64,000 nucleotides of DNA from Parcubacteria group bacterium. Lineage in GTDB: Bacteria > Patescibacteriota > Minisyncoccia > Phycocordibacterales > 21-14-all-47-15. The DNA lies in the NCBI GenBank assembly GCA_016181845.1, contig JACOYO010000004.1:15827-79826 (forward strand), given 5' to 3'. The translations under genes were made by a program, and so were the position numbers. A model generated the notes under the pieces. It was not told the DNA's origin. It worked only from the letters and a program-made list of their open reading frames with translations, and did no database searches. How positions within the stretch are numbered: position 1 is the stretch's first letter; each line of letters begins with the position of its first letter. Below, in pieces: positions 1,803 through 56,516 of the stretch.

Positions 1803-1803
1803 T

Positions 1804-2012: not shown

Positions 2013-2043
2013 ATAACTATTCCAGTATATTGGAACAGTGAAA

Positions 2044-2142: not shown

Positions 2143-2193
2143 TAAATCTAAACTGCCAATGCCGATGTTTTATTATTTTATAACCACCACTAT

Positions 2194-2227
2194 GCCAGTA
2201 TACTGGCATAGTGCCATGGCCAACATC
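2194..2227. repeat. Palindromic hairpin repeat CTATGCCAGTATACTGGCATAG (family P3), copy 1 of 2
   Basis: Perfect palindrome just after the rnr stop. The second copy is at 4927-4964. It generates the spurious ORFs that start MPVYWHSGG. Confidence 0.5.
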
Positions 2228-2240
2228 ATTAGTATTTAAT

Positions 2241-4295: not shown

Positions 4296-4916
4296 ATGAG
4301 CGTGGCAAAAAACAAAGCAAAAAACAAAAATAACAAAGAACGCATCGTTGATTTTCTTTTTGAAGTCGGGATTCTTTCCAAAACGCCGCGGAGCGGCTTT
4401 TATTTTTTGGGTAGCGGAGACCAAAGCGTCGCCGAGCACTTAAATCGCGTGATGTTCATCGGCTACGCGCTTGCCATGCAGGAGAAAAATGTTGACACGA
4501 CAAGGATATTAAAAATGTGCCTTTTCCACGATTTGCCAGAAGGGCGCACTTCCGATTTGAATTATGTGCATCAAAAATATGCCAATGTGAACGAGCGGAA
4601 AGTGGTTGAAGACATGACTGAAACTCTGCCGTTTGGCGACGACATAAAAGCGGTGTGGGAAGAATATGTGGAACGAAAAACACGAGAGTCAATTATCGCA
4701 AAAGATGCTGATATTCTTGAGTGGATATTGTCGTTGAAAGAACAGGTTGATACGGGCAATGTTCGCGCGCGTGAATGGATTACGGTCGCCGCGAAGCGGC
4801 TGAAAACTGATAATGCTAAGAAGCTTGTGCCATCAATTCTCAAAACCGAATCTGACCACTGGTGGTTTAGCGATAAAAAAGATACGTGGTGGGTCAATCG
4901 CAACAAGGAAAAGTAA
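4296..4916 (+). CDS. HD-domain phosphohydrolase (YfbR-like 5'-nucleotidase family)
   Basis: H...HD...D motif region (VAEHLNRV..., CLFHDLPEGRTSD) typical of the HD superfamily; 206 aa. Confidence 0.65.
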   Translation: MSVAKNKAKNKNNKERIVDFLFEVGILSKTPRSGFYFLGSGDQSVAEHLNRVMFIGYALAMQEKNVDTTRILKMCLFHDLPEGRTSDLNYVHQKYANVNERKVVEDMTETLPFGDDIKAVWEEYVERKTRESIIAKDADILEWILSLKEQVDTGNVRAREWITVAAKRLKTDNAKKLVPSILKTESDHWWFSDKKDTWWVNRNKEK

Positions 4917-33601: not shown

Positions 33602-36600
33602 TTACAACTCTTTCACAGCTTCGGCGATGATAGAGAGTTCGTCGTTCCTGTCAGAAAGACGGCCTTTGATAACTACGCATTTGTCTGGCGCGAGCATCAT
33701 TTTATATTCTGTAAAAGTGCGCGGGAATACGACTGCCTCTATGGTTCCGCTAAAGTCGGCAAATTTCAAAAACACCATACGCTCGCCTTTTTTGGTGACC
33801 ACTTCGCGCGCTTCTTCAATGATACCGCCGATAATCACTTGCGCGCTAGTGGAGCCCGCCTCTCTTAATTGTTTAATGCTGGTGCCGCTTTTTTCTAATC
33901 GTTCGCGATATTTTTCAAGCGGATGACCGGAGATATAGAGCCCGAGCAATTCTTTTTCCCACCCCAATTTTTCTTCATTTGAAATAGGAGGCGTGTTTTT
34001 GAGAGTGAGTCCGGGTATAGATGAATCGCTCTCCATCAAACCAAAAAGCGATTCTTGCGAAGCCGAGTGCTGTAAAGATGCGCGGTTGTAGACGAGCGCT
34101 TCTTCAATATTCCCAAAAAGTGAGCCGCGTTCTCCAAGCGTGTCCATGGCGCCCGATTTTACCAGCGCTTCAAGCGATTTCTTGTTCAAATTTTTATGCT
34201 TCACGCGGTCAAGAAAATTGGAATATGAAATAAAGGCGCCCGATTTTTTTCGCTCGGCGATGATGGCGTCAGCGATATCTTGACCCAAGTTTTTGATTGT
34301 GTACAGCCCAAAGCGGATGGCATCGCTGGCCGTGGTTTCTCCTTTGATGGCTGTAAAATCTCCGAAGCTTTCGTTGATGTCTGGCGGAAGCACTGGAATT
34401 TTCATCCGCTGGCACTCATGGATGATTTCGGCAATTTTTTCCACGTCGCCTGATTCTGCGGTAAGGACGGCGGTCATGTACTCGGTCGGGAAATTCGCTT
34501 TCATGTAGGCGGTTTGATAAGCGACGAGCCCGTAGCTGACCGAATGCGCTTTATTGAAGCCGTATGCGGCAAACGGCTCAATCCACGACCATATTTGCTC
34601 GGCTTTTTTCTTGCTCCAGCCGCTGGTCTTGATGCAGCCGTTGATAAATTTATCTTTCTGCGCCTGCATTTCTTCGGGGATTTTTTTACCGACGGCTTTT
34701 CTGAATTTATCTATTTCAAGCCATGAGTATCCGGCAAGCTCCCGCGCCATAACGAGCAGGTCGTCTTGGTATACTAAAATCCCGTAGGTTAGTTTCAAGA
34801 TTTTTTCCAGCGCTGGGTCGAGATAGCGGATGAGCTCCGGATTGTGTTTGCGCGCGATGTAGTCGGGGATAAACTGCATCGGACCCGGGCGGTAGAGCGC
34901 CACCATGGCGTTGATGTCGTGGATCGTGGTCGGTTTCAATTCTTTCAAATATCGCGTCATGCCGGAGCCGTTCAATTGGAAAAGCCCCATGGTTTCTCCG
35001 CGCGCGAGCATCTTGAATGTTTTTGGGTCGTCGAGCGGAATGTGCTCAATATCAATATCAGCATCACAGAATTTTTTTGTAAGACGAACCGCGTCCGAAA
35101 GAATGGAAAGGTTTCTAATTCCCAAAAAATCAAATTTTAGGAGCCCCGCGTCTTCTATTGAATACATGTCGTACTGCGTGATAATTTTTCCACCTTTGGG
35201 GTCAAATTGGAGCGGCGCAAATTCGGTGAGCGGAACTGGAGAAATGACGACGCCCGCGGCGTGAATAGAAATATGGCGGGCGCACCCTTCGATTTTTTTT
35301 GCCAAGTCAATGATTTCTTTGGTAGTGGTATCTTCTTTGTATAATGTTGCGAGTTCAGGCGTGATTTCCAACGCATGGTCAATCGTCATCGGGAATCCCT
35401 GTGAGCCCATGGGGATGAGTTTTGCAATTTTATCTCCCACCACATACTCATGTCCGAGCGAGCGGGCGATGTCGCGCACAGAACCGCGCGCCATCATTGT
35501 GCCGAATGTGCCGATTTGCGCGACGCGGTCTTCGCCGTATGTTTTTTTTACATATGTAAGCATTTCGTCGCGGCGATTGTCGGCGAAGTCCATATCAATA
35601 TCAGGCGCCGAAGGGCGTTCCGGATTCAAAAATCGTTCAAACGGAATTTTATACTCCAGTGGATTGACATTAGTTATGCCGGTAAGATAAGTGACGAGCG
35701 AACCGGATACCGAACCTCTGATGTTTGTCAAAATATGATTTTCCCGCGCGTACCGGAGGAGGTCAGACACCACAAGAAAATAGGGCGCGTAACCTTTATC
35801 GCGGATAATTTTTAATTCATACTCAATACGTTCTTTTACCTCGTCTGTTTCGCCGACACCGCGTTTCGTAAGCCCGCCATAGGCAAATTCACGCAATTTT
35901 TGGTCGTAGCTAACGCCGTCTTCAATCGGCAAATCAGGAAACACCCATTTGCCGAGCTCAAGCGTCACATTGGCGCGGTCTGCGATGCGGCCGGTGTTTT
36001 CTATCGCATCGGGAATGTTGCCGAAATATTCTCTCGCTTGCGCTTCGGAAATAAACGAGGTGTCAACATCGCCAATCTGCATGTCGGCCAAGTCGCGGCT
36101 TGATTGAATGGCGAGCATGGTATCGCGCGCGCGCTTATCTTCTGGATTCAAATAATAAAAATCTTGCGCCGCGACGATAGGTATTCCTATTTTTTTTCCG
36201 AGTTCTGTCAATTTTTTTTGTACTTCCTCATGACCTTCTATTTCCGGATGATGGGTTATCTCAAAAAAATAATTGCCGGAGCCGAAAATTTGGAGATGTT
36301 CTCTCGCGACTTGCTCGGCTTTCTCCCAATCGTTGTTGCGGAGCGCGCGCGACACCTCTCCGCCGAATGTGCCTGAAAGACAAATCAATCCTTCATGATA
36401 TTTTTGTAGGAGTTCTTTATCAATGCGTGGCTTGTAGTAGTAACCCTCAAGGTGGGATTGGGTGACGAGTTTGAGTAGATTTTTATAGCCGATATTGTTC
36501 TCTGCCAAAAGCACCAGATTGAAACGACGGTTGTCGACGCCCGCCTGCTTGTCGTGGCGACTGCGGACTGCAACATACGCGTCAATACCGAAAATCGGTT

Positions 36601-36784
36601 TTATGTTTTCTTCTTTGCATTTTTTATAAAACTCAATCGCTCCGTAGAGATTGCCAAGGTCGGTCAGCGCGATGGCATCCATGTTTTCTTTTTTTGCGCG
36701 CCGGACAATCTCTGGTATTTTTGGCAAGGCTTGGAGGAGGGAATAGTGGGAATGGGTATGGAGATGTACGAAGCGTGAAGCCAT
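33602..36784 (-). CDS. dnaE: DNA polymerase III alpha subunit
   Basis: 1060 aa with an N-terminal PHP domain (HLHTHSHYSLL), the polymerase core and a C-terminal OB fold. Confidence 0.9.
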   Translation of the reverse strand: MASRFVHLHTHSHYSLLQALPKIPEIVRRAKKENMDAIALTDLGNLYGAIEFYKKCKEENIKPIFGIDAYVAVRSRHDKQAGVDNRRFNLVLLAENNIGYKNLLKLVTQSHLEGYYYKPRIDKELLQKYHEGLICLSGTFGGEVSRALRNNDWEKAEQVAREHLQIFGSGNYFFEITHHPEIEGHEEVQKKLTELGKKIGIPIVAAQDFYYLNPEDKRARDTMLAIQSSRDLADMQIGDVDTSFISEAQAREYFGNIPDAIENTGRIADRANVTLELGKWVFPDLPIEDGVSYDQKLREFAYGGLTKRGVGETDEVKERIEYELKIIRDKGYAPYFLVVSDLLRYARENHILTNIRGSVSGSLVTYLTGITNVNPLEYKIPFERFLNPERPSAPDIDMDFADNRRDEMLTYVKKTYGEDRVAQIGTFGTMMARGSVRDIARSLGHEYVVGDKIAKLIPMGSQGFPMTIDHALEITPELATLYKEDTTTKEIIDLAKKIEGCARHISIHAAGVVISPVPLTEFAPLQFDPKGGKIITQYDMYSIEDAGLLKFDFLGIRNLSILSDAVRLTKKFCDADIDIEHIPLDDPKTFKMLARGETMGLFQLNGSGMTRYLKELKPTTIHDINAMVALYRPGPMQFIPDYIARKHNPELIRYLDPALEKILKLTYGILVYQDDLLVMARELAGYSWLEIDKFRKAVGKKIPEEMQAQKDKFINGCIKTSGWSKKKAEQIWSWIEPFAAYGFNKAHSVSYGLVAYQTAYMKANFPTEYMTAVLTAESGDVEKIAEIIHECQRMKIPVLPPDINESFGDFTAIKGETTASDAIRFGLYTIKNLGQDIADAIIAERKKSGAFISYSNFLDRVKHKNLNKKSLEALVKSGAMDTLGERGSLFGNIEEALVYNRASLQHSASQESLFGLMESDSSIPGLTLKNTPPISNEEKLGWEKELLGLYISGHPLEKYRERLEKSGTSIKQLREAGSTSAQVIIGGIIEEAREVVTKKGERMVFLKFADFSGTIEAVVFPRTFTEYKMMLAPDKCVVIKGRLSDRNDELSIIAEAVKEL

Positions 36785-36823
36785 GATGTATGATTATAGG
36801 TAAATGAATGTAAATCTCAAAAC

Positions 36824-36958
36824 TCTTTCTTCGTCATATATTTTTGATAGACGCGCATTCCGCCCTGGGCGGATGCCATGCTCCTCCGACAGTATCGTCG
36901 GGGTCCGCAATGTCTCTCAAAAATTATGATTCAGAGCGAGTTTTGTAATCTTAGATAA
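36824..36958. mobile_element. MITE-like element, copy 1 (terminal inverted repeats CAAAACTC / GAGTTTTG)
   Basis: Shares the framework ...aaaactct..tttttgatagacgcgcat.c-[hairpin]-...cgcaatgtctctcaaaaa.tatgatt...gagttttgtaat with 40684-40822. Its internal hairpin is ccgccctgggcgg. Confidence 0.5.
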
Positions 36959-37038
36959 TGGTAAAGTTTTATGTATACAGATTACATGAAGCTAGTATAT
37001 AATCTGCTCTCGCTCGAAAAAATAAAAAGCACACTTTT

Positions 37039-37065
37039 TATTTTCACTCGCTCGTTTAATTATAC
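37039..37065 (+). promoter_or_regulatory. Conserved upstream motif TTTTCACTCG-TCGTTTAATTAT (also found before nusB)
   Basis: A near-identical 25-nt motif recurs at 39011-39035. Confidence 0.35.
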
Positions 37066-37092
37066 TCTCATTTTTTATACGTTGAAACTTGT

Positions 37093-37719
37093 ATGATGCG
37101 AAAAAAGAAAGTGAAATATATTGTTGGGATTGATGAAGCCGGGCGCGGGCCGCTCGCTGGGCCTTTGGCGGTTGGGGCGGTGGCGTGGCCGGTTTCGTAC
37201 GCATTTCAAGAACGGTTTGCGAATGTCCGTGATTCAAAACAGCTTTCAGCGGACCAGCGTGAATACTTTTTTAGAGAGCTTCGCCTTGAACAGGCGCGTG
37301 GTATTATTATATGCCGTGTTGCATTTATTACGCCGCGCATGATTGATGCGCATGGCATGACCAAAGCGCTGCGGTTGGGTGTCTCTCGCGCTCTAGAGAA
37401 GCTTTGTATTGATACATCATTAATGGACGTGATACTCGACGGTTCTCTTTTTGCTCCGTCGGAATATAAACAACAGACAATTATTAGAGGAGATGAGACC
37501 GTACCGATTATTTCTGCCGCGTCTATTATCGCAAAAGTATCACGCGACAAACACATGATGAAAATTGCAAAAAAGTATCCGCAGTATGGTTTTGAAAAGC
37601 ATAAAGGGTATGGCACAAGAGCGCACTATGAAGCTCTGGAAAAATATGGAGTGTTGCCCATACACCGAAAGCTCTTTTTACGCAAGTGGAGTAGGCGCAT
37701 AATAAAACTTGACAGATAA
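37093..37719 (+). CDS. rnhB: Ribonuclease HII
   Basis: GIDEAGRGPLAGPL catalytic motif. Confidence 0.9.
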   Translation: MMRKKKVKYIVGIDEAGRGPLAGPLAVGAVAWPVSYAFQERFANVRDSKQLSADQREYFFRELRLEQARGIIICRVAFITPRMIDAHGMTKALRLGVSRALEKLCIDTSLMDVILDGSLFAPSEYKQQTIIRGDETVPIISAASIIAKVSRDKHMMKIAKKYPQYGFEKHKGYGTRAHYEALEKYGVLPIHRKLFLRKWSRRIIKLDR

Positions 37720-37793
37720 GTACTTTTAGAGTATTATTAAAAAATAAACGTAAATTGAAAATTTAATACAAATACTAAAGAAAGAAGGTTCTT

Positions 37794-38387
37794 ATGAAAG
37801 AACAAGGACGAAAGATAGATATTTACGACCCGGATTTTATACCTGGGGTTAATGAGCCACTTCTTGACGGCATGAGTTGTTTTTGTGCCGGTATTCCGTT
37901 TGAAATTGCAAGAGCTTCAAACGGTCACCCTAGAAAAGTTTACTTCCGGGTGATTCCCTACACCACGAATAGTGGTAGAACGCAAATCAAATTTTCTGGG
38001 GGGACAAACAAATCCCCACACGAAAGCCCTCTCAATGTCCTTAGGCGGGAAATCAAAGAGGAATTAGGGGTGGATGGTTTGAAAGCCGAATTAATATATT
38101 CGGCTAAAAAAGTGGATAAAGATGCCCATGTCAAATACTTTTTTTTGCTGAACCATTGGGAGGGATGTTTTTTCCCAAACCAACGGCAAATTAGGGATGA
38201 CCAAGTCGGGCCATCCTCATGGGAAGAACCTATCGTTCTTGAGAAGGTTCTTTTTAGAGGGCATCTTCCAGCACTCTATGCGGCGGTGGGCCATTTGGCA
38301 AAGGACCCGCTGTTGTTCAAATTCTTTGACGAACAAAATTTGTTGGTCAAAGACCCAGCTGTATATGCCCCCGTGTATAGGTATTGA
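37794..38387 (+). CDS. NUDIX hydrolase domain protein
   Basis: Nudix box approximated by GGTNKSPHESPLNVLRREIKEELGV. Confidence 0.55.
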   Translation: MKEQGRKIDIYDPDFIPGVNEPLLDGMSCFCAGIPFEIARASNGHPRKVYFRVIPYTTNSGRTQIKFSGGTNKSPHESPLNVLRREIKEELGVDGLKAELIYSAKKVDKDAHVKYFFLLNHWEGCFFPNQRQIRDDQVGPSSWEEPIVLEKVLFRGHLPALYAAVGHLAKDPLLFKFFDEQNLLVKDPAVYAPVYRY

Positions 38388-38471
38388 AGCATCCAAGCAA
38401 GACCTAATGCGCCACGGAATGATGTCCCGTGGCGTTTTTTTATCCCACTATTCCACAAGGCAAAACCTAAT

Positions 38472-38494
38472 TGTTGGACATCGGATGTCCAACA
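38472..38494. repeat. Family P2 palindrome TGTTGGACATCGGATGTCCAACA upstream of rpmF
   Basis: Perfect palindrome. Confidence 0.55.
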
Positions 38495-38547
38495 TATGTT
38501 GTAATCGGGTTGCGTATTTTTTCAAAACAGGTTATGATATAAAAACT

Positions 38548-38853
38548 ATGTCAGTACGAATGCGGCACACTAGGGCTCATACCAAAAACCGGCGAGCGCA
38601 CCATGCGCTTGAGATGCCTCGGCTTTCTGCGTGCCAGAAATGCGGCGCGGCACAGTTGCCGCATCATATGTGCGGAAATTGCGGGTATTACCGCGGGCGG
38701 CAGGTTATTGACATGGCGGCAAAAACAGCGACGCGGGCAAAGCGTCGGCAGGAAAAGCTAAAGTCGTTTGGAGAAATAAAGAAAAAAGAAGAAGATGGTG
38801 GAAAAGAAAATGCTCTTTCGGCTGAAACATTGTCGGCAAAGAAGAAAAAATAG
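38548..38853 (+). CDS. rpmF: 50S ribosomal protein L32 with a Lys-rich C-terminal extension
   Basis: MSVRMRHTRAHTKNRRAHHAL...CQKCG...HHMCGNCGYY matches L32, including its zinc-ribbon cysteines. The ORF-track N-terminal extension (from 38197) is rejected. Confidence 0.75.
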   Translation: MSVRMRHTRAHTKNRRAHHALEMPRLSACQKCGAAQLPHHMCGNCGYYRGRQVIDMAAKTATRAKRRQEKLKSFGEIKKKEEDGGKENALSAETLSAKKKK

Positions 38854-39031
38854 GGCAGTATAGTATATTGTTCTTTTGATATTTATTGTGGGATGGAAAT
38901 AGTAAACTAGCCGGGGTGGTTCATGGTTCATAATTTTTATTTCATAATATCACACGCGAATCATACAAAGCATGATTCGCGCTCACTCTGAAAAGAAAAT
39001 TGATATTTTCTTTTCACTCGTTCATTTAATT

Positions 39032-39952
39032 ATGGCAAACAGGCACCTTTCACGAAGTATCGTCATGCAATCGCTCTTTGAGTGGGATTTCCGCAATGCG
39101 TCAAAAAAAGAACTTGAGACGATTTTAGAGAAAAACATAAACGAATTCGGCCCCGGACTTGGGGATGATGTGTTTATGCAAACCCTGTTGCACGGGGTTA
39201 TTTCAAAACAGAAAGAAATAAACCGTATCATAGAGAAAGCGGCGCCGGAGTGGCCGATTGATAAAATTTCAATTGTTGACCGAAACATCTTGCGCATCGG
39301 ACTCTACGAACTGCTCTTTGGCGACAGAAAAGAAGTACCCCCAAAAGTCTCTATCAATGAAGCGATTGAGCTTGCAAAAACTTTCGGCGGAGAAACGAGC
39401 GGGAAATTTGTAAACGGCGTGCTTGGCGCTGTCTACAAAGAGATAGGCGAACCGGGGAAAGAAGAACAATCAAAACATAAAAACAATAATCATCACAAAG
39501 AGCCGGTTGATATTTCAAAACTTCCAATTGAGAAATTGGGAGGAGCGGTGGCATACGCGCGGGACGAAAATAATATTATTCATTTGGCGCTGGTGCACGA
39601 TGTGTTCGGCTACTGGACTCTATCAAAAGGGCATATAGAAGCGGGGGAAACGCTTGAAGAAGGCACCAAGCGTGAAATCAAAGAAGAAACCGGGCTCACG
39701 ATTTCCATTGAAAAAGATTTGGGAAGCAATGAATACATCGCTTCCGACCCAGAAAAAGGCAAAATCAGAAAACAAGTTTCCTATTTTCTCGCGTCGTCTC
39801 CGTTTGTTGAAGTGAAGTTAGAAAAAACGGGCGGCGGACTTGATGACGTGCGCTGGTTTTCGCTTGAAGAAATACCGGAGCTTCGCATTTACGACGATAT
39901 CATTCCTATTATTACCAAAGGAATTAATCTGCTCATGAAACATAGAGAATAA
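39032..39952 (+). CDS. nusB: Transcription antitermination factor NusB fused to a C-terminal NUDIX hydrolase domain
   Basis: NusB core (VDRNILRIGLYELLF, GKFVNGVLGAV), then a linker, then the Nudix box GHIEAGETLEEGTKREIKEETGL. The start may instead be 39065. Confidence 0.75.
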   Translation: MANRHLSRSIVMQSLFEWDFRNASKKELETILEKNINEFGPGLGDDVFMQTLLHGVISKQKEINRIIEKAAPEWPIDKISIVDRNILRIGLYELLFGDRKEVPPKVSINEAIELAKTFGGETSGKFVNGVLGAVYKEIGEPGKEEQSKHKNNNHHKEPVDISKLPIEKLGGAVAYARDENNIIHLALVHDVFGYWTLSKGHIEAGETLEEGTKREIKEETGLTISIEKDLGSNEYIASDPEKGKIRKQVSYFLASSPFVEVKLEKTGGGLDDVRWFSLEEIPELRIYDDIIPIITKGINLLMKHRE

Positions 39953-39964
39953 AACATCTGTAAT

Positions 39965-40663
39965 ATGAAAAACTTTTCAAAGATTGAACAAAAAATTAAT
40001 ATCACTTTTAAAAACAAAGATTTATTACAGCAGGCATTTACGCATCGTTCGTATATCAACGAATATCGCGGCAAAAAACTTGAGCACAATGAGCGACTTG
40101 AGTTTTTGGGCGATGCAGTGCTTGAATTGGCTGTAACGGAATATCTGTACGCAAAATATCCAAAGAGGCCTGAAGGGGACCTGACCTCTTTCCGCGCGGC
40201 GCTCGTGAACACAAACACGCTTTCGCAGGTTGCTTCGGAGTTGAACTTCAATGAATTTCTCCTGCTTTCAAAAGGCGAAGCAAAAGACGTCGGTAGGGCG
40301 CGACAGTATATTCTCGCAAACACTTTTGAAGCGTTTACGGGCGCTTTATATCTTGACCAAGGATATGACGCGGCTCAAAAATTTATCGGCGCGCATCTTT
40401 TTCCATTGATTGACGATATTGTGTCAAATCGGCTCTGGCAAGACAGCAAAAGTTATTTCCAAGAACAGGCGCAGGAATATGTGAACATCACGCCCGAATA
40501 TCATGTCTTGCGGGAGGAAGGTCCAGACCACGATAAGCATTTCACTATCGGCGTATATCTGGGCGAAGAACTCGTCGCGGAAGGAGAAGGCAAATCAAAA
40601 CAGGAAGCGGAACAGGGCGCCGCCGAAGAAGCGCTCCGCAAAAAGGAGTGGGGGAAGAAATAA
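39965..40663 (+). CDS. rnc: Ribonuclease III
   Basis: ERLEFLGDAVL signature plus a C-terminal dsRBD. Confidence 0.9.
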   Translation: MKNFSKIEQKINITFKNKDLLQQAFTHRSYINEYRGKKLEHNERLEFLGDAVLELAVTEYLYAKYPKRPEGDLTSFRAALVNTNTLSQVASELNFNEFLLLSKGEAKDVGRARQYILANTFEAFTGALYLDQGYDAAQKFIGAHLFPLIDDIVSNRLWQDSKSYFQEQAQEYVNITPEYHVLREEGPDHDKHFTIGVYLGEELVAEGEGKSKQEAEQGAAEEALRKKEWGKK

Positions 40664-40683
40664 TCATCTTATACTATCTTGAG

Positions 40684-40822
40684 TTACAAAACTCTACTTC
40701 ATCATGAATTTTTGATAGACGCGCATAATCCTGCTTGCGAGCAGGATTTGCTATGCTCGTTTTGCTTGAGAGCAAAACTCCGCAATGTCTCTCAAAAACT
40801 ATGATTTCATCGAGTTTTGTAA
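40684..40822. mobile_element. MITE-like element, copy 2
   Basis: TIRs ttacaaaactc / gagttttgtaa. Its internal hairpin is atcctgcttgcgagcaggat, differing from copy 1. Confidence 0.5.
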
Positions 40823-40839
40823 TTTAATATATCACATCA

Positions 40840-43080
40840 ATGCACCTCAAGCGTTTGGAATTAAACGGCTTTAAATCTTTCAACAAAAAAACGGAGCTTG
40901 TTTTTGACGCGCCTATTTCGGCGATTGTGGGACCGAACGGCTCCGGTAAATCAAATGTCGCAGAGGCGATGCGGTTTGTGCTGGGAGAGCAGTCTATCAA
41001 ATCAATGCGCGGCAAACGCGGAGAAGACCTCATCTTCAACGGTTCTGCCGGAGCGTCGCGTATGGGCAAGGCGTCGGTCGCAATCATTTTTGACAACAGT
41101 AAGCGTGAGTTCAACGTTGATTTTGATGAAGTGGATATCGCGCGCGTGGTGCATCGCGACGGAGTGAACCAATATTTTATAAACAAAAGCCAGGTGCGGC
41201 TGAAAGACGTGATAGAAATTCTTTCGGCGGTGCATATCGGCGCTTCAGGACATCATATCATTTCACAAGGCGAAGCAGACCGTATTTTGAGCGCGTCTGC
41301 CAAAGACCGGCGAGTAATGATTGAAGACGCGCTTGGATTAAAAATTTATCAATATAAAAAAGCCGAGAGCGAGCGCAAACTTGAAAAGACCGCGGAGAAT
41401 ATAAAAGAAGCCGAATCGCTCCGTCGCGAGATTGCGCCGCATATTAAATTTTTGCAAAAACAAGTAGAAAAAATAGAACAGGCGCGAACGCTCCGCGAAG
41501 AATTAAGCCGCGAATACCGCGCGTATTTCAAACGTGAAGCGTTTCATTTGTCGCATGTAAAACAAGCGCTCGCGAATGAAAAAACACCGCTCGCGGATGA
41601 AATCAAAACTCTTGAAAAATCGCTTGAACACGCGCGCGAAAAAGCTGCCGAGGGCAAAGATGCCGCCGCTATCAACCGCCTCGTATTTCTTGAAGGCGAA
41701 TTGGCGCGCGCGAATGAGGAAAAAGATATGCTTTCGCGCAAGCTTGGGCGGCTGGAGGGAATGATTGAATATGCGGAAAAAATGCGCGCGAAAGAAACAC
41801 GCGCGCGAGAAGGAGCAGTCATTTCTTTGAACTCTGTAAAATCTTTGTATGAGGAGATAGCCGCGCCGCTTGCTGAGGCCGGAGCTTCTTCCGATATTGA
41901 ACATATTCGCGGGTTTCTAAAAAAAATAAAAGACTCGTTTGCTTCTTTTTTTGCTCGGGAAGAAGGTCAGCACAATATAGCCGATGGTGAAGAGGAAGAT
42001 AGCGCAGTTCGGCTTAAAGAAAAAGACGCGCTGGTAAAAGATATAGCTAAAGAGGAGGGTGTTATCGCTGGGCTTGTGTCTGAACACGCGCGCCTGAAAA
42101 AAGAAATTGAATCAAAAGAAACGCTCTCGCGCGATGCCGAACGAAAAGTATTTGAATATTTGAGCGCGCTTGGCGAAAAACGAATGTCACTGCAGGCGCT
42201 TGCGGGCAAAGAAGAAACGTTGTCGCTTGAAGAAGAAGATTTCAAGCGCGAGCTTGGAGAGGCGGGCGCCCTTTTGGGGAGGGCGATTGTGGCGTATGAG
42301 CACGAGCAGATTGATACTTCTGAAATGACTGGCGAAGACCGCACGCTTCAGAAAGAACGCCGCAAACATATAGAAAAAATGAAAGTCCGCGTGGAAGATA
42401 TGGGCGGAAGCTCCGGTGAAGACATAATGAAAGAATACACGGAAACGAGCGAACGCGACCAATATCTTATGCGTGAGCTTTCCGACTTGCACACGAGCAG
42501 TGAATCGCTTCGGCACTTGATAGACGACCTGTCGCAACAAATAGACGAAAAATTTAAAACCGGTATTACAAAAATAAATGCCCAATTTCAGGAATTTTTT
42601 GCGCTCATGTTTGGTGGCGGCAGAGCGGCGCTCTCTCTAGTAATAGAAAAAAAGAAAAAAAATATTGATGAGAGCCTTGATATTGACGACGTGAGCGCGC
42701 TTGAGTTTGAAGAAGAAAAAGAAGAAGCGGGCATTGATATCGCAGTCAGCTTGCCGCACAAAAAAATCAAAGGCCTGCAAATGCTTTCGGGCGGGGAACG
42801 CGCGCTCACTTCCATCGCGCTTCTTTTTGCTGTGTCTCAAGTAAATCCGCCGCCGTTTCTGGTGCTTGATGAGACCGATGCCGCGCTCGATGAAGCAAAC
42901 TCGCGTAAATACGGCGACATGCTGGAAAATCTAGCGAAGTATTCCCAGCTTATCGTGATAACACACAATCGCGAGACGATGTCCCGCGCGGGGATTCTCT
43001 ACGGTGTTACGATGGGTTCGGACGCCACATCAAAACTGCTTTCAATCAAATTTGACGAGGCGGTGCAAATTGCCAAATAG
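40840..43080 (+). CDS. smc: SMC-family chromosome segregation ATPase (short form)
   Basis: N-terminal Walker A GPNGSGKSN, a long coiled coil and the C-terminal signature LSGGERALTSIALLFAV...LDETDAALD. At 746 aa it is shorter than canonical SMC. Confidence 0.8.
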   Translation: MHLKRLELNGFKSFNKKTELVFDAPISAIVGPNGSGKSNVAEAMRFVLGEQSIKSMRGKRGEDLIFNGSAGASRMGKASVAIIFDNSKREFNVDFDEVDIARVVHRDGVNQYFINKSQVRLKDVIEILSAVHIGASGHHIISQGEADRILSASAKDRRVMIEDALGLKIYQYKKAESERKLEKTAENIKEAESLRREIAPHIKFLQKQVEKIEQARTLREELSREYRAYFKREAFHLSHVKQALANEKTPLADEIKTLEKSLEHAREKAAEGKDAAAINRLVFLEGELARANEEKDMLSRKLGRLEGMIEYAEKMRAKETRAREGAVISLNSVKSLYEEIAAPLAEAGASSDIEHIRGFLKKIKDSFASFFAREEGQHNIADGEEEDSAVRLKEKDALVKDIAKEEGVIAGLVSEHARLKKEIESKETLSRDAERKVFEYLSALGEKRMSLQALAGKEETLSLEEEDFKRELGEAGALLGRAIVAYEHEQIDTSEMTGEDRTLQKERRKHIEKMKVRVEDMGGSSGEDIMKEYTETSERDQYLMRELSDLHTSSESLRHLIDDLSQQIDEKFKTGITKINAQFQEFFALMFGGGRAALSLVIEKKKKNIDESLDIDDVSALEFEEEKEEAGIDIAVSLPHKKIKGLQMLSGGERALTSIALLFAVSQVNPPPFLVLDETDAALDEANSRKYGDMLENLAKYSQLIVITHNRETMSRAGILYGVTMGSDATSKLLSIKFDEAVQIAK

Positions 43081-43123
43081 CAGAAATAACAAAAAAACCC
43101 GATGAAATTTTTTCCATCGGGTT

Positions 43124-43699
43124 TTACGATAGCGGATGCGTTTCCTCCCACGCCGTCTTGGCAATTATAGTTGCCCAGGCGGGGTCATGGAGAGCGAATG
43201 AATGTTCAGTGATGGCGTCTGTCTGATGACAGCCGACATCGTGCTGGAGGTAGCGCGAATCATTGCCCGTGTACCCTTTCTTTCCTTGGTCTCCCCAAAA
43301 ATGAAAGGGAATCCATTTCGCCCAGGAGACCACCTCATCGCACGCATTGTAAAAAATATGAATCCATTTCACTTGCGGCGCTATCACTTTGTCGGCATCA
43401 AGCGCCGGGTCAATCAAGATTGCTCCGGTAAATACCGCGCCATGTTCGGCGATGAGCCATGCCAATGCCGCGCCGTTGGAATGACCGATGATGATATCAT
43501 CCGGCTCAATTTGCTTGGCGATGCGCCGCGTGATGAATGGGTTGCGGAGCCATGCGGTCCCAAACACAATAGGGAAGCCGTACGGATGAGCGACGATTTC
43601 TTTTTCATCAAAGCCAGCTTTTTTTAGTTTTTCTGCGATGAGCCCCATGCTTTTTTGAGTGCCTAACGTGTTGATACCGGAAAGCAAGTGTACTTTCAC
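43124..43699 (-). CDS. Alpha/beta serine hydrolase (RBBP9/YdeN family)
   Basis: IIGHSNGAA nucleophile-elbow motif in a ~190-aa single-domain hydrolase. Confidence 0.6.
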   Translation of the reverse strand: MKVHLLSGINTLGTQKSMGLIAEKLKKAGFDEKEIVAHPYGFPIVFGTAWLRNPFITRRIAKQIEPDDIIIGHSNGAALAWLIAEHGAVFTGAILIDPALDADKVIAPQVKWIHIFYNACDEVVSWAKWIPFHFWGDQGKKGYTGNDSRYLQHDVGCHQTDAITEHSFALHDPAWATIIAKTAWEETHPLS

Positions 43700-43840
43700 G
43701 ATATACCACCTCCTTCGTTTTTAAATTTTCAACGATGTTGAAAAATCTTTTTTAACCATATCTTATTTTTAATAAAAGTCAATATTTTCATCAAAAAAGC
43801 TAGATTTTTAACTAAAATCTGTGGTATGATTTTTTTAACT

Positions 43841-43916
43841 GGCCCTATCGTCCCCGCCCAGGGCGGGCAGGTAACGGTTAGGACATCGGCTTTTCAAGCC
43901 GGTAATAGTAATATAT
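43841..43916 (+). pseudogene. tRNA-Glu(UUC)-like 5' portion with a 19-nt GC hairpin insertion in the D-region and no T-arm or 3' acceptor strand
   Basis: GGCCCUAUCGUC-[ccccgcccagggcgggcagg]-UAACGGUUAGGACAUCGGCUUUUCAAGCCGG, then AU-rich sequence. The first 12 nt and the D-loop are identical to the downstream tRNA-Glu. Confidence 0.4.
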
Positions 43917-43988
43917 GGCCCTATCGTCTAACGGTTAGGACACCGCCTTCTCAAGGCGGGAATCAGAGTTCGATTCTCTGTAGGGTCA
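43917..43988 (+). tRNA. tRNA-Glu (anticodon CUC), no encoded CCA
   Basis: Acceptor GGCCCUA/UAGGGUC, anticodon loop UUCUCAA, T-loop UUCGAUU. Confidence 0.8.
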
Positions 43989-43990
43989 AA

Positions 43991-44036
43991 AATTGCGTAA
44001 AGCAGGTAAACTGCTTTACCTGCGGGCAATTTTTGA
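43991..44036 (+). terminator. Nested hairpin plus T-run after tRNA-Glu
   Basis: aattgc-gtaaagcagg-taaa-ctgctttac-ctgcgg-gcaatttttg. Confidence 0.4.
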
Positions 44037-44276
44037 AGCCGTAGCCATGTCGCTCAATTTTGTCGCCACTCCTCCCATCGTCTCATTAACGCAAAAGGAT
44101 TAAGGCATTTAAAATTTAAAACAGATAAACAAGCACGACCGAGTCACGATCAATATACTAGATTAAAACTGCTCCATCTTGCACCGCAGATTCTAAAAGA
44201 ATCGCACACCCTTCAGGGGGTTTGGAAAACCAAACAGTTTGAAATACAAAAAACAAACAATCGCTGGGAACGAATT

Positions 44277-44453
44277 ATGAAAGAAGTCATTTTTTATGAA
44301 TTCATTGCTGTTGTAGATACTATTCGTGCAAAAGTTATTGTAAAACAAATCTGCGGCGGGGAAAAGCATTTTTGGAGTGTGATACCTTATTGGGGAATAA
44401 ACAAAAATAACAGTAAAAGAATTTTACATAGTGGCAATCCTACAGATGATTAA
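44277..44453 (+). CDS. Small ORF (58 aa) inside an otherwise non-coding 600-bp stretch
   Basis: ATG..TAA encoding MKEVIFYEFIAVVDTIRAKVIVKQICGGEKHFWSVIPYWGINKNNSKRILHSGNPTDD, followed by a hairpin/T-run at 44461-44487. It is below the ORF-track length cut-off. Confidence 0.3.
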   Translation: MKEVIFYEFIAVVDTIRAKVIVKQICGGEKHFWSVIPYWGINKNNSKRILHSGNPTDD

Positions 44454-44657
44454 ACTAAAAAACACCGCACAAAGGCGGTATTTTTTAGAGGTGCTTGGGT
44501 ACAGCTTGGATAGCCGTGACAGGGCCAAGGCCCTCCAAACACCAGTTTCAACATATCATACTTGGAGCTGAAAAGCCAATGGATTGTGTGGGTAAGTTTC
44601 AGAATTAATTGCAACACTTGATTTAGCAATTAAACTGGTCAATATGCGCGTTTCTAT

Positions 44658-45026
44658 TTAGAATTTATTCACGAATGGGAAATAGGTGTGCAAGACGTCC
44701 CATGTCATGCTGACGGTGTAAAATGCCGGATTGGTGATGACGCAGTTTGTTCGGTAAAAAGCCGGACAAAAATCAAAGTGACCTTTTCCGTCAGTAATGA
44801 CTGTTTTTTGCGTAATGACCGGCAGTTTGTTTTTCTCTGAAGATGAGTTTTCTAGTGCTCGAGCGCGGTCTTTTTGGTAGTCCGCGTCGTTGAAACAGGC
44901 AATCAACACCCCTTCGTTGTAACTCGGGTGGTCCGGAGCGTTGCACACCGTCGGATATGATGCCGCCGATGCGATGCCCGCGCTAGCGCTAAAAAATAAC
45001 GCGACTAAAAATAAGATTTTTTTCAT
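44658..45026 (-). CDS. Hypothetical secreted protein (signal peptide)
   Basis: MKKILFLVALFFSASAGIASA signal sequence; 122 aa. Confidence 0.5.
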   Translation of the reverse strand: MKKILFLVALFFSASAGIASAASYPTVCNAPDHPSYNEGVLIACFNDADYQKDRARALENSSSEKNKLPVITQKTVITDGKGHFDFCPAFYRTNCVITNPAFYTVSMTWDVLHTYFPFVNKF

Positions 45027-45124
45027 ATAGTATACTGACTATTTTGATTGATAGTTTTTAATATCTCTTTTTTAATGAGTATCGACCTTCTGATAAATAG
45101 TTTTTAGGATTTACAACTTAAAAA

Positions 45125-45245
45125 AATGAAAACAAAAAGCCCACCACGGGTCTCCGCCGAAGCGGACATACCGGTTTCCCGGTATGGCCAGTGAAGCAAC
45201 CCCATGATGGGTTTTCTATGCTTCACTGGTCTTTTTTCACCATGC
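45125..45245. ncRNA. Candidate structured RNA or complex terminator (four consecutive stem-loops)
   Basis: Hairpins agcccaccacgggt, ccgccgaagcgg, ccggtttcccgg and an 11-bp stem ccagtgaagca/tgcttcactgg around an inner cccatgatggg hairpin, followed by a T-run. No protein-coding potential. Confidence 0.3.
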
Positions 45246-45429
45246 CCGACAAAAAATTGTCTTGCCGAGTTTAGGCTACTTTTTGATTAAATTGTATTTC
45301 CTATAATTTTATAGTAGCATCAAAGGCAATGTTCGTCTACTCAATCAAGTTTCCTGTTCTGGACCAATGATAAAAATGAAAAACAAAGGGTAGCCCTTTG
45401 TTTTTCCGTATACTGGAGTAAATAAAAAC

Positions 45430-46059
45430 ATGAGAATTACAGAACTTCCAACTATGGATCGTAAAGTCGTTAAGGATCTGAAAATTGCACTTAAGGATTT
45501 TGAACGGCTGGTAAAAAACCCTCAATTCCTCTGGAATGGGCGAGAGTTTACGAATTTTAGTTTGCGACCACGCGAAGCATGGGCTAATTGGCTTGTATGT
45601 GTTGTTTTGCGCAAAATACACGGGAGGGATATTAGCTTTATGGAGGATAACGAGGGGGACGGATTTATTGTTGATAGAGAGCTGGGACTTGCTTTTCAAA
45701 CGGAGCACGTATCAGCACTTAACGTTCCGAAAGGAAAGCAACTGCCTGATGGAGAGCAACGAGTGCTGGACGCTATAAATCTAAAAATTGCACGGGGCCG
45801 CGACTATGCACACGAAAAGCTACTTGTCGTTTTCTTCGATGGTGCCGGTCAGTTCTTCAGGAGCAAAATCCGCGAGAATATCTTTGGACGACACGATTTC
45901 GAAGCGGTGTTTTGTGTTGGTCTATTGGATTCGGGTCCGAATGGTTATTCCTATTCGATTACTGAATTTAGAGATTCCTTCGGTCATCAATCCGTAACCC
46001 ATAAAGTGGAAATAGACATAGATTTTAGTGATTGGAAAATAACGCAAATCATGCAGTAA
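45430..46059 (+). CDS. Hypothetical protein (209 aa)
   Basis: Longest ORF in the region, with an upstream GGAG. I know of no assignable family. Confidence 0.5.
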   Translation: MRITELPTMDRKVVKDLKIALKDFERLVKNPQFLWNGREFTNFSLRPREAWANWLVCVVLRKIHGRDISFMEDNEGDGFIVDRELGLAFQTEHVSALNVPKGKQLPDGEQRVLDAINLKIARGRDYAHEKLLVVFFDGAGQFFRSKIRENIFGRHDFEAVFCVGLLDSGPNGYSYSITEFRDSFGHQSVTHKVEIDIDFSDWKITQIMQ

Positions 46060-46335
46060 AAACAATGTCTGACCCAAAAAACCAACATATCATTCCCGTT
46101 CTGGGCACTGACTTATAATGATCAAGGAGAATATTTTGTATTGCACAAACTCTACCCTGAGTATTGCCACATACTCATGGCGCTTGACTATGGTTTAGCA
46201 CGATTTCGAGGTGATATTTAACTTTCTCTATGGGCGAAGAAGATAAAATTATACTCAACGAGGGAGGTTACATAGGTCTGACCTATGTAAGCGGGACGCG
46301 GTTCTACGTATATGCTGTTATGGTAGAATTATACA

Positions 46336-47058
46336 ATGAACAAGGAAGAACAAAAAAATTCCGATGCAGCGATTGAATATGTGAAAAAACACAGTGATGA
46401 AATTATACAAAAATTTGCCAGCATCAAAACGTTTCCACTAAGTGAATATCCAGTGTCAGTGTTTATGGCGGGCTCTCCCGGGGCTGGGAAGACAGAATTC
46501 TCACAAGAAGTGTTGGATGTGTGGTTTGGGGACTCCGACATACAAGATGCGGTGCGTATTGACCCGGACGAAGTGAGGAAAATAATCCCTGGTTATGATG
46601 GTACTAATGCGTATCTTTTCCAGGCAGCTGTTTCTGTGGGTGTGGAAAAGATACATGATAGTGTTCTAAAATATGGACAAAACTTTATTCTTGATGGTAC
46701 ATTATCTATATTTAAAAAAGCAAAAGAAAATATTCAGCGTTCCATTGATAAACATAGATTAGTTTTTATTTTTTACATATATCAAGACCCTCTGGTAGCA
46801 TGGGCGTTTACCAAAGAGAGGGAGGTCAAAGAGGGGCGTAAAATTCCAAAGCAAGCTTTTATAGAACAATTCTTTGGTGCCAGGGATTCAGTAAATCAAA
46901 TTAAGGAATATTTCGGTGACAAAATTAAAGTATATTTGGTGGAAAAAAATTTTGAAAATAAGATTCAAAAAATAATGATAAATATAACAAAAATTGACTC
47001 CCATATATCATTTGGTTATAATAAAGAAACTCTTACAAAAGCATTGAAAAATATATGA
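46336..47058 (+). CDS. P-loop kinase of the zeta-toxin / AAA_33-like family
   Basis: Walker A FMAGSPGAGKTEF near residue 40 and a downstream ILDGTLS motif, in a ~240-aa protein. This is the zeta/PezT-like architecture. Confidence 0.5.
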   Translation: MNKEEQKNSDAAIEYVKKHSDEIIQKFASIKTFPLSEYPVSVFMAGSPGAGKTEFSQEVLDVWFGDSDIQDAVRIDPDEVRKIIPGYDGTNAYLFQAAVSVGVEKIHDSVLKYGQNFILDGTLSIFKKAKENIQRSIDKHRLVFIFYIYQDPLVAWAFTKEREVKEGRKIPKQAFIEQFFGARDSVNQIKEYFGDKIKVYLVEKNFENKIQKIMINITKIDSHISFGYNKETLTKALKNI

Positions 47059-47213
47059 AATTTTTAGATTTCTTTAAAAAAGCAGAGAAACCAAAGACAT
47101 TCTCCGGACTTTTCCGAGAAACATCCGAACGGGAGCAGGTACAGATTTTTGAAGAAGCGGCGCGGCGAGCAAATGAAGAACAGCGCAAAGTTTTTTACGG
47201 GTCAAAATCATAA
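47055..47213 (+). CDS. Small ORF (52 aa) overlapping the previous stop (ATGA)
   Basis: MKFLDFFKKAEKPKTFSGLFRETSEREQVQIFEEAARRANEEQRKVFYGSKS, followed directly by a terminator. Confidence 0.3.
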   Translation: MKFLDFFKKAEKPKTFSGLFRETSEREQVQIFEEAARRANEEQRKVFYGSKS

Positions 47214-47219
47214 CATCAA

Positions 47220-47246
47220 AAAACCACTCCAAAAGGTGGTTTTTTG
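47220..47246 (+). terminator. Rho-independent terminator
   Basis: aaccac-tccaaaa-ggtggtt followed by a T-run. Confidence 0.6.
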
Positions 47247-47409
47247 ATACTATAAAAAATCATTAACCCAAAAGGTTCAATTATTGGCGCACATATAAAG
47301 ACTTAGTCGCTTGGTTACTAAGCACAGTTTTGCAATATGCTATAATAGGACTAAATAGGATTATTCCTACCTGTGGTTGCGGGATTATTGACGTTATTTT
47401 CTGTTTTTC

Positions 47410-47438
47410 TTGACTCTATTAAAAAACTAGGTTATATT
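47410..47438 (+). promoter_or_regulatory. Sigma70-like promoter for grpE-dnaK (no CIRCE element seen)
   Basis: TTGACT, a 17-nt spacer and TATATT, ending 11 nt before the grpE ATG. Confidence 0.4.
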
Positions 47439-47448
47439 ACTATTCACC

Positions 47449-48042
47449 ATGCAAGATAAAGATAAAAAAAATACGGAGGAAAACGGCGAAGACGTTGTTT
47501 TTGATGAATCTTTGGCCGAAGAAGGGGAAGCGGGTTTCGGAAAAGGAAGCGTGGAAAAAATCAAAAAACTGAAAGACGAGCTGAAGGCGTGCCAAAAAGA
47601 AAAGCAGGAATATCTTGATGGCTGGCAGAGGGCCAAAGCGGATTTTATCAACGCGAGGAAAGAAGAAGAAAAAAATCGCGCGCAAGTGGCGCAATTTGCC
47701 AAAGAGGGGATGCTTCATGAGATATTGCCGGTTGTGGATAGTTTTGATATGGCTTTTCGCGATAAGGAGGCGTGGGCGCGGGTTGATGAAAATTGGCGCA
47801 AGGGTGTAGAATATATCTATCAGCAGTTTGTTTCTATTTTGGAAAACAACGGCCTTGCGCCGATAGAATCCTTGGGCAAACATTTTGACCCGACGCTTCA
47901 TTCGCCGATAGAATCGGTGCCGGTGGAAGAAAAAGATAAAGACGGCATCGTGCTTGAGGTGGTGCAGAAAGGGTATCGGATGAATGACCGCGTTCTTCGG
48001 CCGGCGAAAGTGAAAATCGGGGTTTTTGGTAAAGTATCGTAA
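47449..48042 (+). CDS. grpE: Nucleotide exchange factor GrpE
   Basis: Coiled-coil N-terminus and the GrpE core (LPVVDSFDMA, the C-terminal beta domain). Confidence 0.9.
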   Translation: MQDKDKKNTEENGEDVVFDESLAEEGEAGFGKGSVEKIKKLKDELKACQKEKQEYLDGWQRAKADFINARKEEEKNRAQVAQFAKEGMLHEILPVVDSFDMAFRDKEAWARVDENWRKGVEYIYQQFVSILENNGLAPIESLGKHFDPTLHSPIESVPVEEKDKDGIVLEVVQKGYRMNDRVLRPAKVKIGVFGKVS

Positions 48043-48053
48043 ATTATGAATTT

Positions 48054-48138
48054 GAAAAACTCTTTCTGAATCATAGTTTTTGATAGACGCGTATTCCGCC
48101 CAGGGCGGATGCTCTGCTCGAAACACTATTTTGTAATT
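48054..48138. mobile_element. MITE-like element, copy 3 (internally truncated)
   Basis: aaaaactctttctgaatcatagtttttgatagacgcgtattccgcccagggcggatgctctgctcg...attttgtaat; it lacks the cgcaatgtctctcaaaaa segment. Confidence 0.45.
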
Positions 48139-48140
48139 AA

Positions 48141-48217
48141 GACGTCCGACCTCTGGGTTGGTAAAATATCGGCATTTGCCACAAATAAAATAATTACCAC
48201 ATCAGAGGTCGGACGTC
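48141..48217. repeat. Family P4 long-hairpin element, copy 2, directly upstream of dnaK
   Basis: gacgtccgacctctg-ggttggtaa-aatatcggcatttgccacaaataaaataa-ttaccacat-cagaggtcggacgtc. Its arms differ from copy 1 by compensatory changes (T:A to C:G). Confidence 0.55.
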
Positions 48218-48252
48218 TTACATAAAGTAAATAAATAATTGATAAAAAACGT

Positions 48253-56460: not shown

Positions 56461-56516
56461 GAAATTTGAAGCATTAAAATAACCGCCTTCGCTTGAGTTT
56501 CGTAATTCATGATAAT

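Follow-up and report, generated by a model that had tools for sequence, protein, structure and literature searches.

What kind of element recurs in the spacers between housekeeping genes of a Parcubacteria group bacterium is the question raised by a 64,000-nucleotide stretch of its DNA (GenBank assembly GCA_016181845.1, contig JACOYO010000004.1, positions 15,827 to 79,826 of the forward strand), which was analysed as a whole and is called the window below. An earlier reading of this sequence, referred to here as the original prediction, had pointed out three look-alike copies of about 140 bp, all of which are present where it placed them, and had proposed either a non-autonomous mobile element resembling a MITE (miniature inverted-repeat transposable element) or a family of small RNA (sRNA) genes with a variable specificity loop. 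Our analysis indicates that the element is probably a MITE-like, non-autonomous mobile palindromic repeat of 130-150 bp, in the style of ERIC and Correia repeats, carried by some Parcubacteria/Patescibacteria. Individual lineages have acquired copies at new sites. The insertions fall within A/T-rich spacers of very small length, directly past the stop codons or directly ahead of the start codons of housekeeping genes, and are later eroded, either through internal deletion or because other hairpin repeats insert into them. The mobile-element proposal is upheld by terminal inverted repeats (TIRs), the lack of coding capacity, the dispersal of the copies, their presence or absence at orthologous sites and a 5-bp direct repeat at one insertion.

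Copies of the element in the window

Two full copies and one internally deleted copy were found in the window, all on the plus strand. The 15-mer core TTTTTGATAGACGCG, already recognised in the original prediction as common to the three, occurs exactly three times, at 36841, 40709 and 48077, each time on the plus strand. Copies 1 and 2 can be aligned end to end, and copy 3 matches their 5' half and then a shortened 3' end only, which bears out the internal deletion suggested for it. Comparison of all copies disclosed a longer inverted terminal repeat, by which the limits of the element were set at 36809-36954, 40679-40827 and 48047-48140. The shared ends quoted earlier, TTACAAAACTC...GAGTTTTGTAA, are exact in copy 2 but not in the others: the 5' end of copy 1 is TCTCAAAACTC, and copy 3 has the ends TTTGAAAAACTC and, shortened at the 3' side, AAACACTATTTTGTAA. 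The count of three copies also had to be extended, since a fourth site, a solo-end remnant on the minus strand, had been missed; its TGAATTACGAAACTC is an exact 15-nt match to the 5' end of the copy in the related locus L022 (loci from other genomes are numbered L001 onwards), with a score that 0 of 2000 shuffles reached. Covariance-model and nhmmer scans detected no additional copies in the window. The copies and their parts are as follows.

36809-36954, plus strand: copy 1, full length, in the spacer between the divergent genes dnaE and rnhB; covariance-model score 115.6 bits; 5' end degenerate (TGTAAATCTCAAAACTC)
36841-36858, plus strand: copy 1, core TTTTTGATAGACGCGCAT of the 5' inner stem and junction, conserved without change in every canonical copy from three genomes
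36860-36872, plus strand: copy 1, variable hairpin P2 (CCGCCCTGGGCGG), from the fold
36884-36903, plus strand: copy 1, variable hairpin P3 (CTCCGACAGTATCGTCGGGG), from the fold
36905-36929, plus strand: copy 1, conserved 3' junction and inner-stem core CCGCAATGTCTCTCAAAAATTATGA
40679-40827, plus strand: copy 2, full length, filling the rnc-smc spacer; covariance-model score 127.5 bits
40679-40694, plus strand: copy 2, 5' terminal inverted repeat TTGAGTTACAAAACTC
40727-40748, plus strand: copy 2, variable hairpin P2 (AATCCTGCTTGCGAGCAGGATT), from the fold
40759-40778, plus strand: copy 2, variable hairpin P3 (GTTTTGCTTGAGAGCAAAAC), from the fold
40812-40827, plus strand: copy 2, 3' terminal inverted repeat GAGTTTTGTAATTTAA
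48047-48140, plus strand: copy 3, internally deleted, in the grpE-dnaK spacer
56459-56516, minus strand: fourth site, in the 58-nt spacer between mraY and ftsW; a solo-end remnant made up of TGAATTACGAAACTC and a degenerate tail

Copy 3 retains the 5' end, the 5' core, P2 and the linker TGCTCTGCTC, followed by the remnant 3' end AAACACTATTTTGTAATTAA. Element copies measure 130-149 bp and contain no open reading frame (ORF) beyond spurious overlaps. The three intergenic positions are those named in the original prediction (dnaE/rnhB, rnc/smc and grpE/dnaK), and the flanking genes encode DNA polymerase III alpha, RNase HII, RNase III, SMC, GrpE and DnaK. Copy 2 begins 15 nt past the rnc stop codon and ends 12 nt ahead of the smc ATG.

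A promoter-like sequence was observed at the altered 5' end of copy 1 (window 36793-36820, minus strand), where the element supplies a -35-like TTGAGA located 16 nt from a TATAAT, with 11 of 12 consensus matches. The pair lies directly upstream of the dnaE start at 36784 and might be a hybrid promoter made by the insertion.

Gain and decay at orthologous sites

Syntenic loci were gathered through homologues of RNase III, DnaK and RecJ, and the occupied sites were compared with their counterparts in related genomes. The recJ-rnhA spacer is occupied in the metagenome-assembled genome (MAG) Patescibacteria H43-bin012_1 (hereafter H43), and the distance from the recJ stop codon to the rnhA ATG is 11 bp in L025 (RecJ 92% identical) and 4 bp in L026 and L027 (90%). 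The empty site reads TTTTTATAAATTTATGAT and the filled site TTTTTATAAATT-ACCTTGAATTAC...GTAATTCAAAG-AAATT-TATGAT, so that AAATT stands on both sides of the H43 insert and just once in L026 and L027, where the site is empty. A 5-nt match in such an A/T-rich context was estimated to arise by chance with a probability of about 0.002. The copy at L005:1619-1748 is flanked by an imperfect repeat, TAGGTA(G/A)AGG.

The rnc-smc and dnaE-rnhB copies of the window are absent from the syntenic loci L013, L015 and L016, whose Rnc proteins are 87%, 74% and 70% identical, respectively. The empty spacers there are 65-93 bp between rnc and smc and 118, 25 and 45 bp between dnaE and rnhB, and none of them contains a recognisable remnant of the element (shuffle p 0.29-0.63). 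A copy is present between rnc and smc in L022 (Rnc 92% identical), the contig of which ends within it. This copy differs from its window ortholog even in the "invariant" core (TTTTTAATAGACACG); its P2 is like that of the grpE-dnaK copy of L017 and its P3 like that of window copy 1, neither resembling the window ortholog, which suggests that exchange between copies occurs.

Successive states of decay were seen between grpE and dnaK, the internally deleted copy 3 of the window being one of them. In L017 and L018 (DnaK 94% identical) the 3' two-thirds of the element, from P2 onward, are intact and the contig starts inside it; L019 (94%) holds a degenerate copy into which a foreign long hairpin has been inserted; and in L020 and L021 (89%) the last 35 nt only are left, directly past the grpE stop codon (0 of 2000 shuffles). 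The mraY-ftsW spacer, which carries the solo end in the window, is 3 nt in total in L017. In H43 the rnhA-comEC spacer has gained about 190 nt, consisting of another repeat module and a 3' fragment of the element, where the two genes overlap in L025. Altogether, absence or decay in close relatives was recorded at five sites, four by gain or absence and one by the grpE-dnaK decay series. We concluded that the element is an insertion and not a conserved gene.

Three contigs of relatives start or end inside the element (L017:1, L018:1 and L022:1746), as is expected of a repeat.

Copies in other genomes

An exact two-part core pattern was scanned against one genome per species for 185,579 species, and matched a single genome, H43 (a contig of 701,796 bp), in three places. 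The same kind of scan over metagenomes returned H43 again and one further contig, Ga0163144_10037537. Pattern matches in L007-L009, L011 and L012 were dismissed as chance, having no features of the element. In IMG/VR, two patterns gave 0 matches and a third gave 2 chance matches, which the covariance model rejected, and BLAST against plasmids and phages returned nothing. The exact-pattern scans place related copies in just two Patescibacteria genomes besides that of the window. Six copies were used to build a covariance model, which was then run over the loci of related genomes. Element sites number four in the 64-kb window; H43 has at least five copies or fragments and Ga0163144_10037537 has three, and the genes on either side are unrelated. 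These copies at unrelated loci in other genomes rule out that the repeats are just locally duplicated spacers. No copy was detected in about 110 kb of relatives that lack the element at the compared sites.

Several of these copies are altered. At the junction of its fold, the one at L002:5980-6200 carries an insert of about 90 nt that consists of additional hairpins, L001:1806-1892 is a 3' fragment, and two diverged copies lie head to head at L005:4304-4407 (plus) and 4414-4534 (minus). H43 is only distantly related to the genome of the window, with 44-67% identity in shared proteins, but identity in the element is 77-78%.

Terminal repeats, fold and covariation

The inverted terminal repeat has the consensus YYTTGAATTACAAAACTC at both ends and is 16-18 nt long, with 14-16 of 16 positions matching in the best copies and degenerate in others; the element ends can also be written TTGAATTACAAAACTC. 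Each full copy is an imperfect palindrome across nearly its entire length. Folded as a single strand, it forms an interrupted basal stem of about 45 bp, capped by a three-way junction with the hairpins P2 and P3. The segments of the basal stem are ACAAAACTC paired with GAGTTTTGT, CATCAT with ATGAT, and TTTTTGA-T-AGAC with GTCT-C-TCAAAAA, the third of which holds a conserved T/C mismatch. The invariant nucleotides of the junction are arranged as ..GACGCGCAT(P2)TGCTATGCTC(P3)YCCGCAATGTC... The hairpins are fast-evolving: the sequences of P2 and P3 vary from copy to copy, yet the stems remain paired in each. A single exchangeable hairpin had been described before, with its sequences in the three copies (ccgccctgggcgg, atcctgcttgcgagcaggat and ccgcccagggcgg) correctly quoted; there are two variable hairpins, of which P2 alone had been noticed.

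In the full copies the fold is far more stable than in shuffled sequences. The minimum free energy (MFE) is -54.3 kcal/mol for copy 1 against about -29 for dinucleotide shuffles (z -7.0) and -51.6 against about -26 for copy 2 (z -6.9), and in each case 0 of 200 shuffles were as stable. Copy 3 reaches only -22.4 kcal/mol (z -2.6). In an alignment of seven distinct copies, 97.4% of the pair cells are standard pairs, and 21 of the 45 pairs show changes on both sides, a count to be read with the alignment having been fitted to the model. Sliding the partners by 1-3 columns left at most 7 such pairs, and the observed values were reached in 0 of 500 column shuffles. RNAalifold, applied to an independent MAFFT alignment, found 10 pairs with changes on both sides. 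The covariation that had been proposed as a check of the fold is thus present. It is concentrated in P2, P3 and the outer basal stem, and the inner stem and junction are invariant in canonical copies. In the diverged copy L005:4304-4407 the junction still has the motifs ACGCG..., TGCTCTGCTCG... and CTCCGCAAGG, while the basal stem has changed from GATAGAC/GTCTCTC to GAAAAGC/GCTTTTC by compensatory pairs.

Palindromic DNA can gain compensatory changes in one step, through template switching or exchange between copies, without selection at the RNA level. Folding energy and G-U pairs revealed no preference for the sense strand; the reverse strand folds equally well or better (e.g. -48.9 vs -40.1 kcal/mol), which gives no thermodynamic sign of a preferred transcribed strand. 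No family of Rfam 15 matches the element at gathering thresholds, nor does any at E<=10 when 36500-48400 is scanned. The self-cleaving ribozyme families in Rfam (hammerhead, twister and others) were considered and rejected, there being no Rfam match and, by eye, no CUGAUGA...GAAA core.

These results bear on the second proposal of the original prediction, a family of trans-acting sRNA genes in which a variable hairpin loop would determine the target. A conserved scaffold with varying hairpins is what such a family would display. The variable parts, however, are two short stems with loops of 3-8 nt, and their variation consists mainly of compensatory changes in the stems, which are swapped or compensated, the loops not being diversified. 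A consensus scan found no consistent promoter or intrinsic terminator at the copies, and copy 2 simply fills an operon spacer. Together with the lack of conservation of copies at orthologous loci, their decay by deletion and the lack of an Rfam relative, this makes trans-acting sRNA genes a most improbable explanation.

Orientation and genomic context

To what extent the element follows its surroundings was judged from the sites whose two flanking genes run in the same direction. There are six of them (window copies 2 and 3, the mraY-ftsW remnant, and copies a, b and c of H43), and the element has the orientation of the flanking genes at all six (two-sided binomial p ~0.03), a count in which H43 copies b and c, sharing a downstream module, are perhaps not fully independent. 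This same-direction placement suggests that the element is probably co-transcribed. GC skew is non-negative throughout the window and becomes weaker beyond 52 kb, in the part whose genes lie on the minus strand. The minus-strand remnant at 56.5 kb points the way the genes do and not along an obvious change in replication direction; this single data point speaks for transcription, rather than replication, as what the orientation correlates with.

Copies lie 12-20 nt from start or stop codons. Their left flanks are frequently WAWTT (AAATT, AAATT, TAATT, ATATT and AGATT), a pattern that points to A/T-rich spacers as preferred targets. The neighbours are without exception housekeeping genes of a reduced genome, the further ones encoding PBP1, a class I W/Y-family (TyrRS/TrpRS-type) tRNA synthetase, RecJ, RNase H, ComEC, MetK and a glycosyltransferase. 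Among the neighbouring genes examined, no transposase or recombinase adjoins a copy.

Some of these features might also be expected of a site that is structured at the DNA level, namely a REP/BIME-type repeat, an IS200/IS605-type PATE or a protein-binding cruciform, spread by a single-strand HUH transposase (RAYT/TnpA) or used by nucleoid or replication proteins. The genome is rich in other palindromic repeats, the recurrent WAWTT flank is reminiscent of target-sequence-specific insertion, the orientation is biased at six of six sites and most copies have no clear duplication. On the other hand, the ends are true TIRs that pair with each other rather than the separate subterminal hairpins of IS200/IS605 or REP sequences, there is no GTAG-type REP head, and no Y1, RAYT or HUH gene was found among the neighbours, to which that search was confined. 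The 56.5-kb remnant, again as one data point, speaks for transcription rather than replication. A DNA-level site of this kind appears very unlikely.

Two other identities were considered and rejected. For an integron attC site, the CAAAAC/GTTTTG ends do not fit the R''/R' core sites (RYYYAAC ... GTTRRRY) by inspection, and the neighbours are housekeeping genes and not cassettes. The CIRCE operator TTAGCACTC-N9-GAGTGCTAA, which was considered for the location between grpE and dnaK, has no match with up to 3 mismatches in the window.

Mobile repeat or RNA module

If the element is a MITE-like repeat, its insertion would be catalysed in trans by a transposase encoded elsewhere, and the one site at which this can be checked carries the 5-bp AAATT duplication. 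The sense-oriented copies within operon spacers point to co-transcription with the flanking operons and to folding in the mRNA. There the element would most likely be neutral; at most it may influence how the mRNA is processed or how stable it is, for instance by offering RNase III a long double-stranded substrate. The covariation of its stems may be kept by selection on the fold, or by template switching that corrects the palindrome together with exchange between copies.

Four points weigh against this reading. The first is the scarcity of target-site duplications, which had been proposed as a check: AAATT is clear at one H43 copy only, and no direct repeat is recognisable at the window copies or at the other H43 copies. 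The second is that no transposase or longer element with the same ends was found in the approximately 0.3 Mb examined, and no insertion sequence with matching ends in IMG/VR, plasmids or phages; the public collections were not searched for split ends. The third is that the inner stem and junction, and not the termini, are the best-conserved part (100% identical in three genomes), which would be unusual if the only constraint were transposase binding at the ends. The fourth is that the strong stem covariation and the sense orientation at all six sites suggest some selection at the transcript level.

The last two points lead to the alternative that the element is a functional structured RNA module acting in cis within mRNAs, such as a processing or stability element or a protein-binding three-way junction (e.g. 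an RNase III site), for which mobility would be only the means of spread. Covariation is strong in all helices, and the junction nucleotides are invariant across genomes whose shared proteins have diverged as far as noted above; the diverged copy L005:4304-4407 holds the junction while its basal stem changes by compensatory pairs. The sense orientation, the short distances to start and stop codons, and the independent copies downstream of rnc in two distant genomes fit as well. Against such a module, the copies are dispensable, being missing at orthologous sites of close relatives and repeatedly deleted or disrupted, and even in the core the window copy and its L022 ortholog are not the same. 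The equal or better fold of the reverse strand and the lack of an Rfam relative also count against it, as does the fact that covariation in a DNA palindrome can arise without RNA-level selection. We regard a cis-acting RNA module as rather unlikely.

Junction conservation, covariation and orientation bias fit poorly with purely selfish DNA, and for this reason selection on the transcript fold stays alive as a minority view. In its specific form, a mobile RNA module restricted to the candidate phyla radiation (CPR)/Patescibacteria, with a junction core recognised in the transcript by RNase III or another RNA-binding protein, it is a speculative possibility. If it were true, every new insertion would place a finished signal for processing or stability in the gap from one cistron to the next, and the orientation at six of six sites, the covariation and the junction conservation would reflect RNA selection and not transposition. 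The element would then be a compact, portable RNA three-way junction; otherwise, it would be an ordinary selfish repeat in an unusual host.

The element is of interest in three respects. Patescibacteria have genomes of about 0.7 Mb with very short spacers, and the element can wedge 140 bp into a place where a stop codon and the next start codon are 4 bp apart. It can therefore be used to trace how these genomes have changed recently, it is in practice one reason why MAG assemblies break, and it may be a source of new regulatory structure in operons.

Neighbouring repeats and other features

A separate long-hairpin repeat, not part of the element, abuts copy 3:

48140-48218, no strand assigned: 79-nt long-hairpin repeat (family D4); second copy at 2065-2143, 89% identical

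The stem changes between its two copies are compensatory. A hairpin related to it lies inside the degenerate element copy of L019 (L019:1960-2110), at the same grpE-dnaK site; its association with the element in both the window and L019 suggests that this hairpin is itself mobile or targets the element. The spacer of about 440 bp between convergent genes at window 1803-2240 holds at least four different hairpin repeats (D3, D4, D7 and a terminator-like stem).

A second palindromic family, GGACRTCSGAYGTCC within longer hairpins, occurs in the window at 1810, 1854, 26832, 27406/27413, 38476, 51053 and 61359; these 8 sites compare with 0.16 expected by chance, and most lie just past genes and resemble terminators. 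The structured RNAs found by Rfam were tRNAs and LOOT RNA only. The LOOT RNA (RF03000), a candidate structured RNA unrelated to the element, is full length at window 45153-45277 on the minus strand and scores 79.4 bits against a gathering threshold of 46.4.

A promoter-like module of about 170 nt, containing TTGACAAAAT..ACGAATGGGTGTA, comes after both copy b and copy c of H43 (L002:237-420; L003:7396-7220, minus strand) and is absent from the window. A tie to one gene family was considered and rejected, since the ORFs downstream of copies b and c are small and unrelated. Another H43 module, TGCACTACAGAAATCAYGTCGGAAGATTTT...ATAAAATTTCTGACT (L001:1893-2000, L003:7540-7600), stands ahead of the full copy c and, in tandem, ahead of the 3' fragment L001:1806-1892. 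Such shared modules beside element copies indicate that the intergenic repeats of H43 combine as mosaics. About 0.9 kb downstream of H43 copy b, L002:1117-2886 (plus) encodes a 589-aa P-loop protein (...VIGKTGMGKST...) that by eye resembles conjugative coupling or DNA-translocation ATPases, a candidate likeness only.

Comparison with known repeats

Prokaryotic MITEs are described as shorter than 500 bp, with TIRs of 4-30 bp, direct repeats that fade with age, A/T-rich intergenic targets and stable transcript folds (PMC10969869, PMC11602168), and the features of the element appear to fit this description. A literature search found no paper that links MITEs or small palindromic mobile repeats to Patescibacteria in substance, and a survey of 183,232 genomes does not mention Patescibacteria.

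Among known families, ERIC/IRU (127 bp) is like the element in being a non-coding imperfect palindrome of about 130 bp across nearly its full length, situated in transcribed intergenic spacers. It also varies in copy number among related genomes, has some copies with internal insertions (as in L002:5980-6200 here), is without a known transposase and has poorly defined flanking duplications. ERIC copies have been reported to affect mRNA decay, including effects through RNase E (PMC10969869, PMC11602168). The differences are that there is no sequence similarity, that the host of the element is a member of the Patescibacteria, that the element folds around a defined three-way junction, which bears two hairpins and is invariant in sequence, and that its distribution is far narrower, three genomes by exact-pattern scans.

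The Correia/NEMIS elements of Neisseria, MITEs of 100-155 bp, share with it the TIRs and the insertion beside genes. They are co-transcribed and their paired ends form double-stranded RNA, as would be the case for our element, and Correia-containing Neisseria RNA is cut by RNase III (PMC10969869, PMC11602168). Their ends can supply promoter hexamers, to which the TTGAGA from the end of copy 1 upstream of dnaE is comparable. Unlike the element, with a 5-bp duplication seen once and a handful of documented copies, they have a regular TA duplication, a site for IHF and hundreds of copies.

The pneumococcal RUP, BOX and SPRITE repeats and the Rickettsia palindromic elements (RPEs) are also small dispersed hairpin repeats, modular and often decaying (PMC3049150, PMC10969869), and their hosts have reduced or compact genomes, as here. 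BOX differs in being modular without long TIRs, RPEs in inserting in frame within genes, and RUP in being tied to a known insertion sequence (IS630-Spn1), a partner of which kind is not known for the element. REP/BIME sequences and IS200/IS605 PATEs are likewise palindromic and extragenic, form mosaics with other modules (as in H43) and show orientation bias. However, REPs are 20-40 nt long with a GTAG head and a cognate RAYT, and PATEs have distinct left and right subterminal hairpins and no TIRs, none of which are features of the element. We concluded that the element adds a new example to a familiar class of bacterial repeats and does not represent a new kind of gene.

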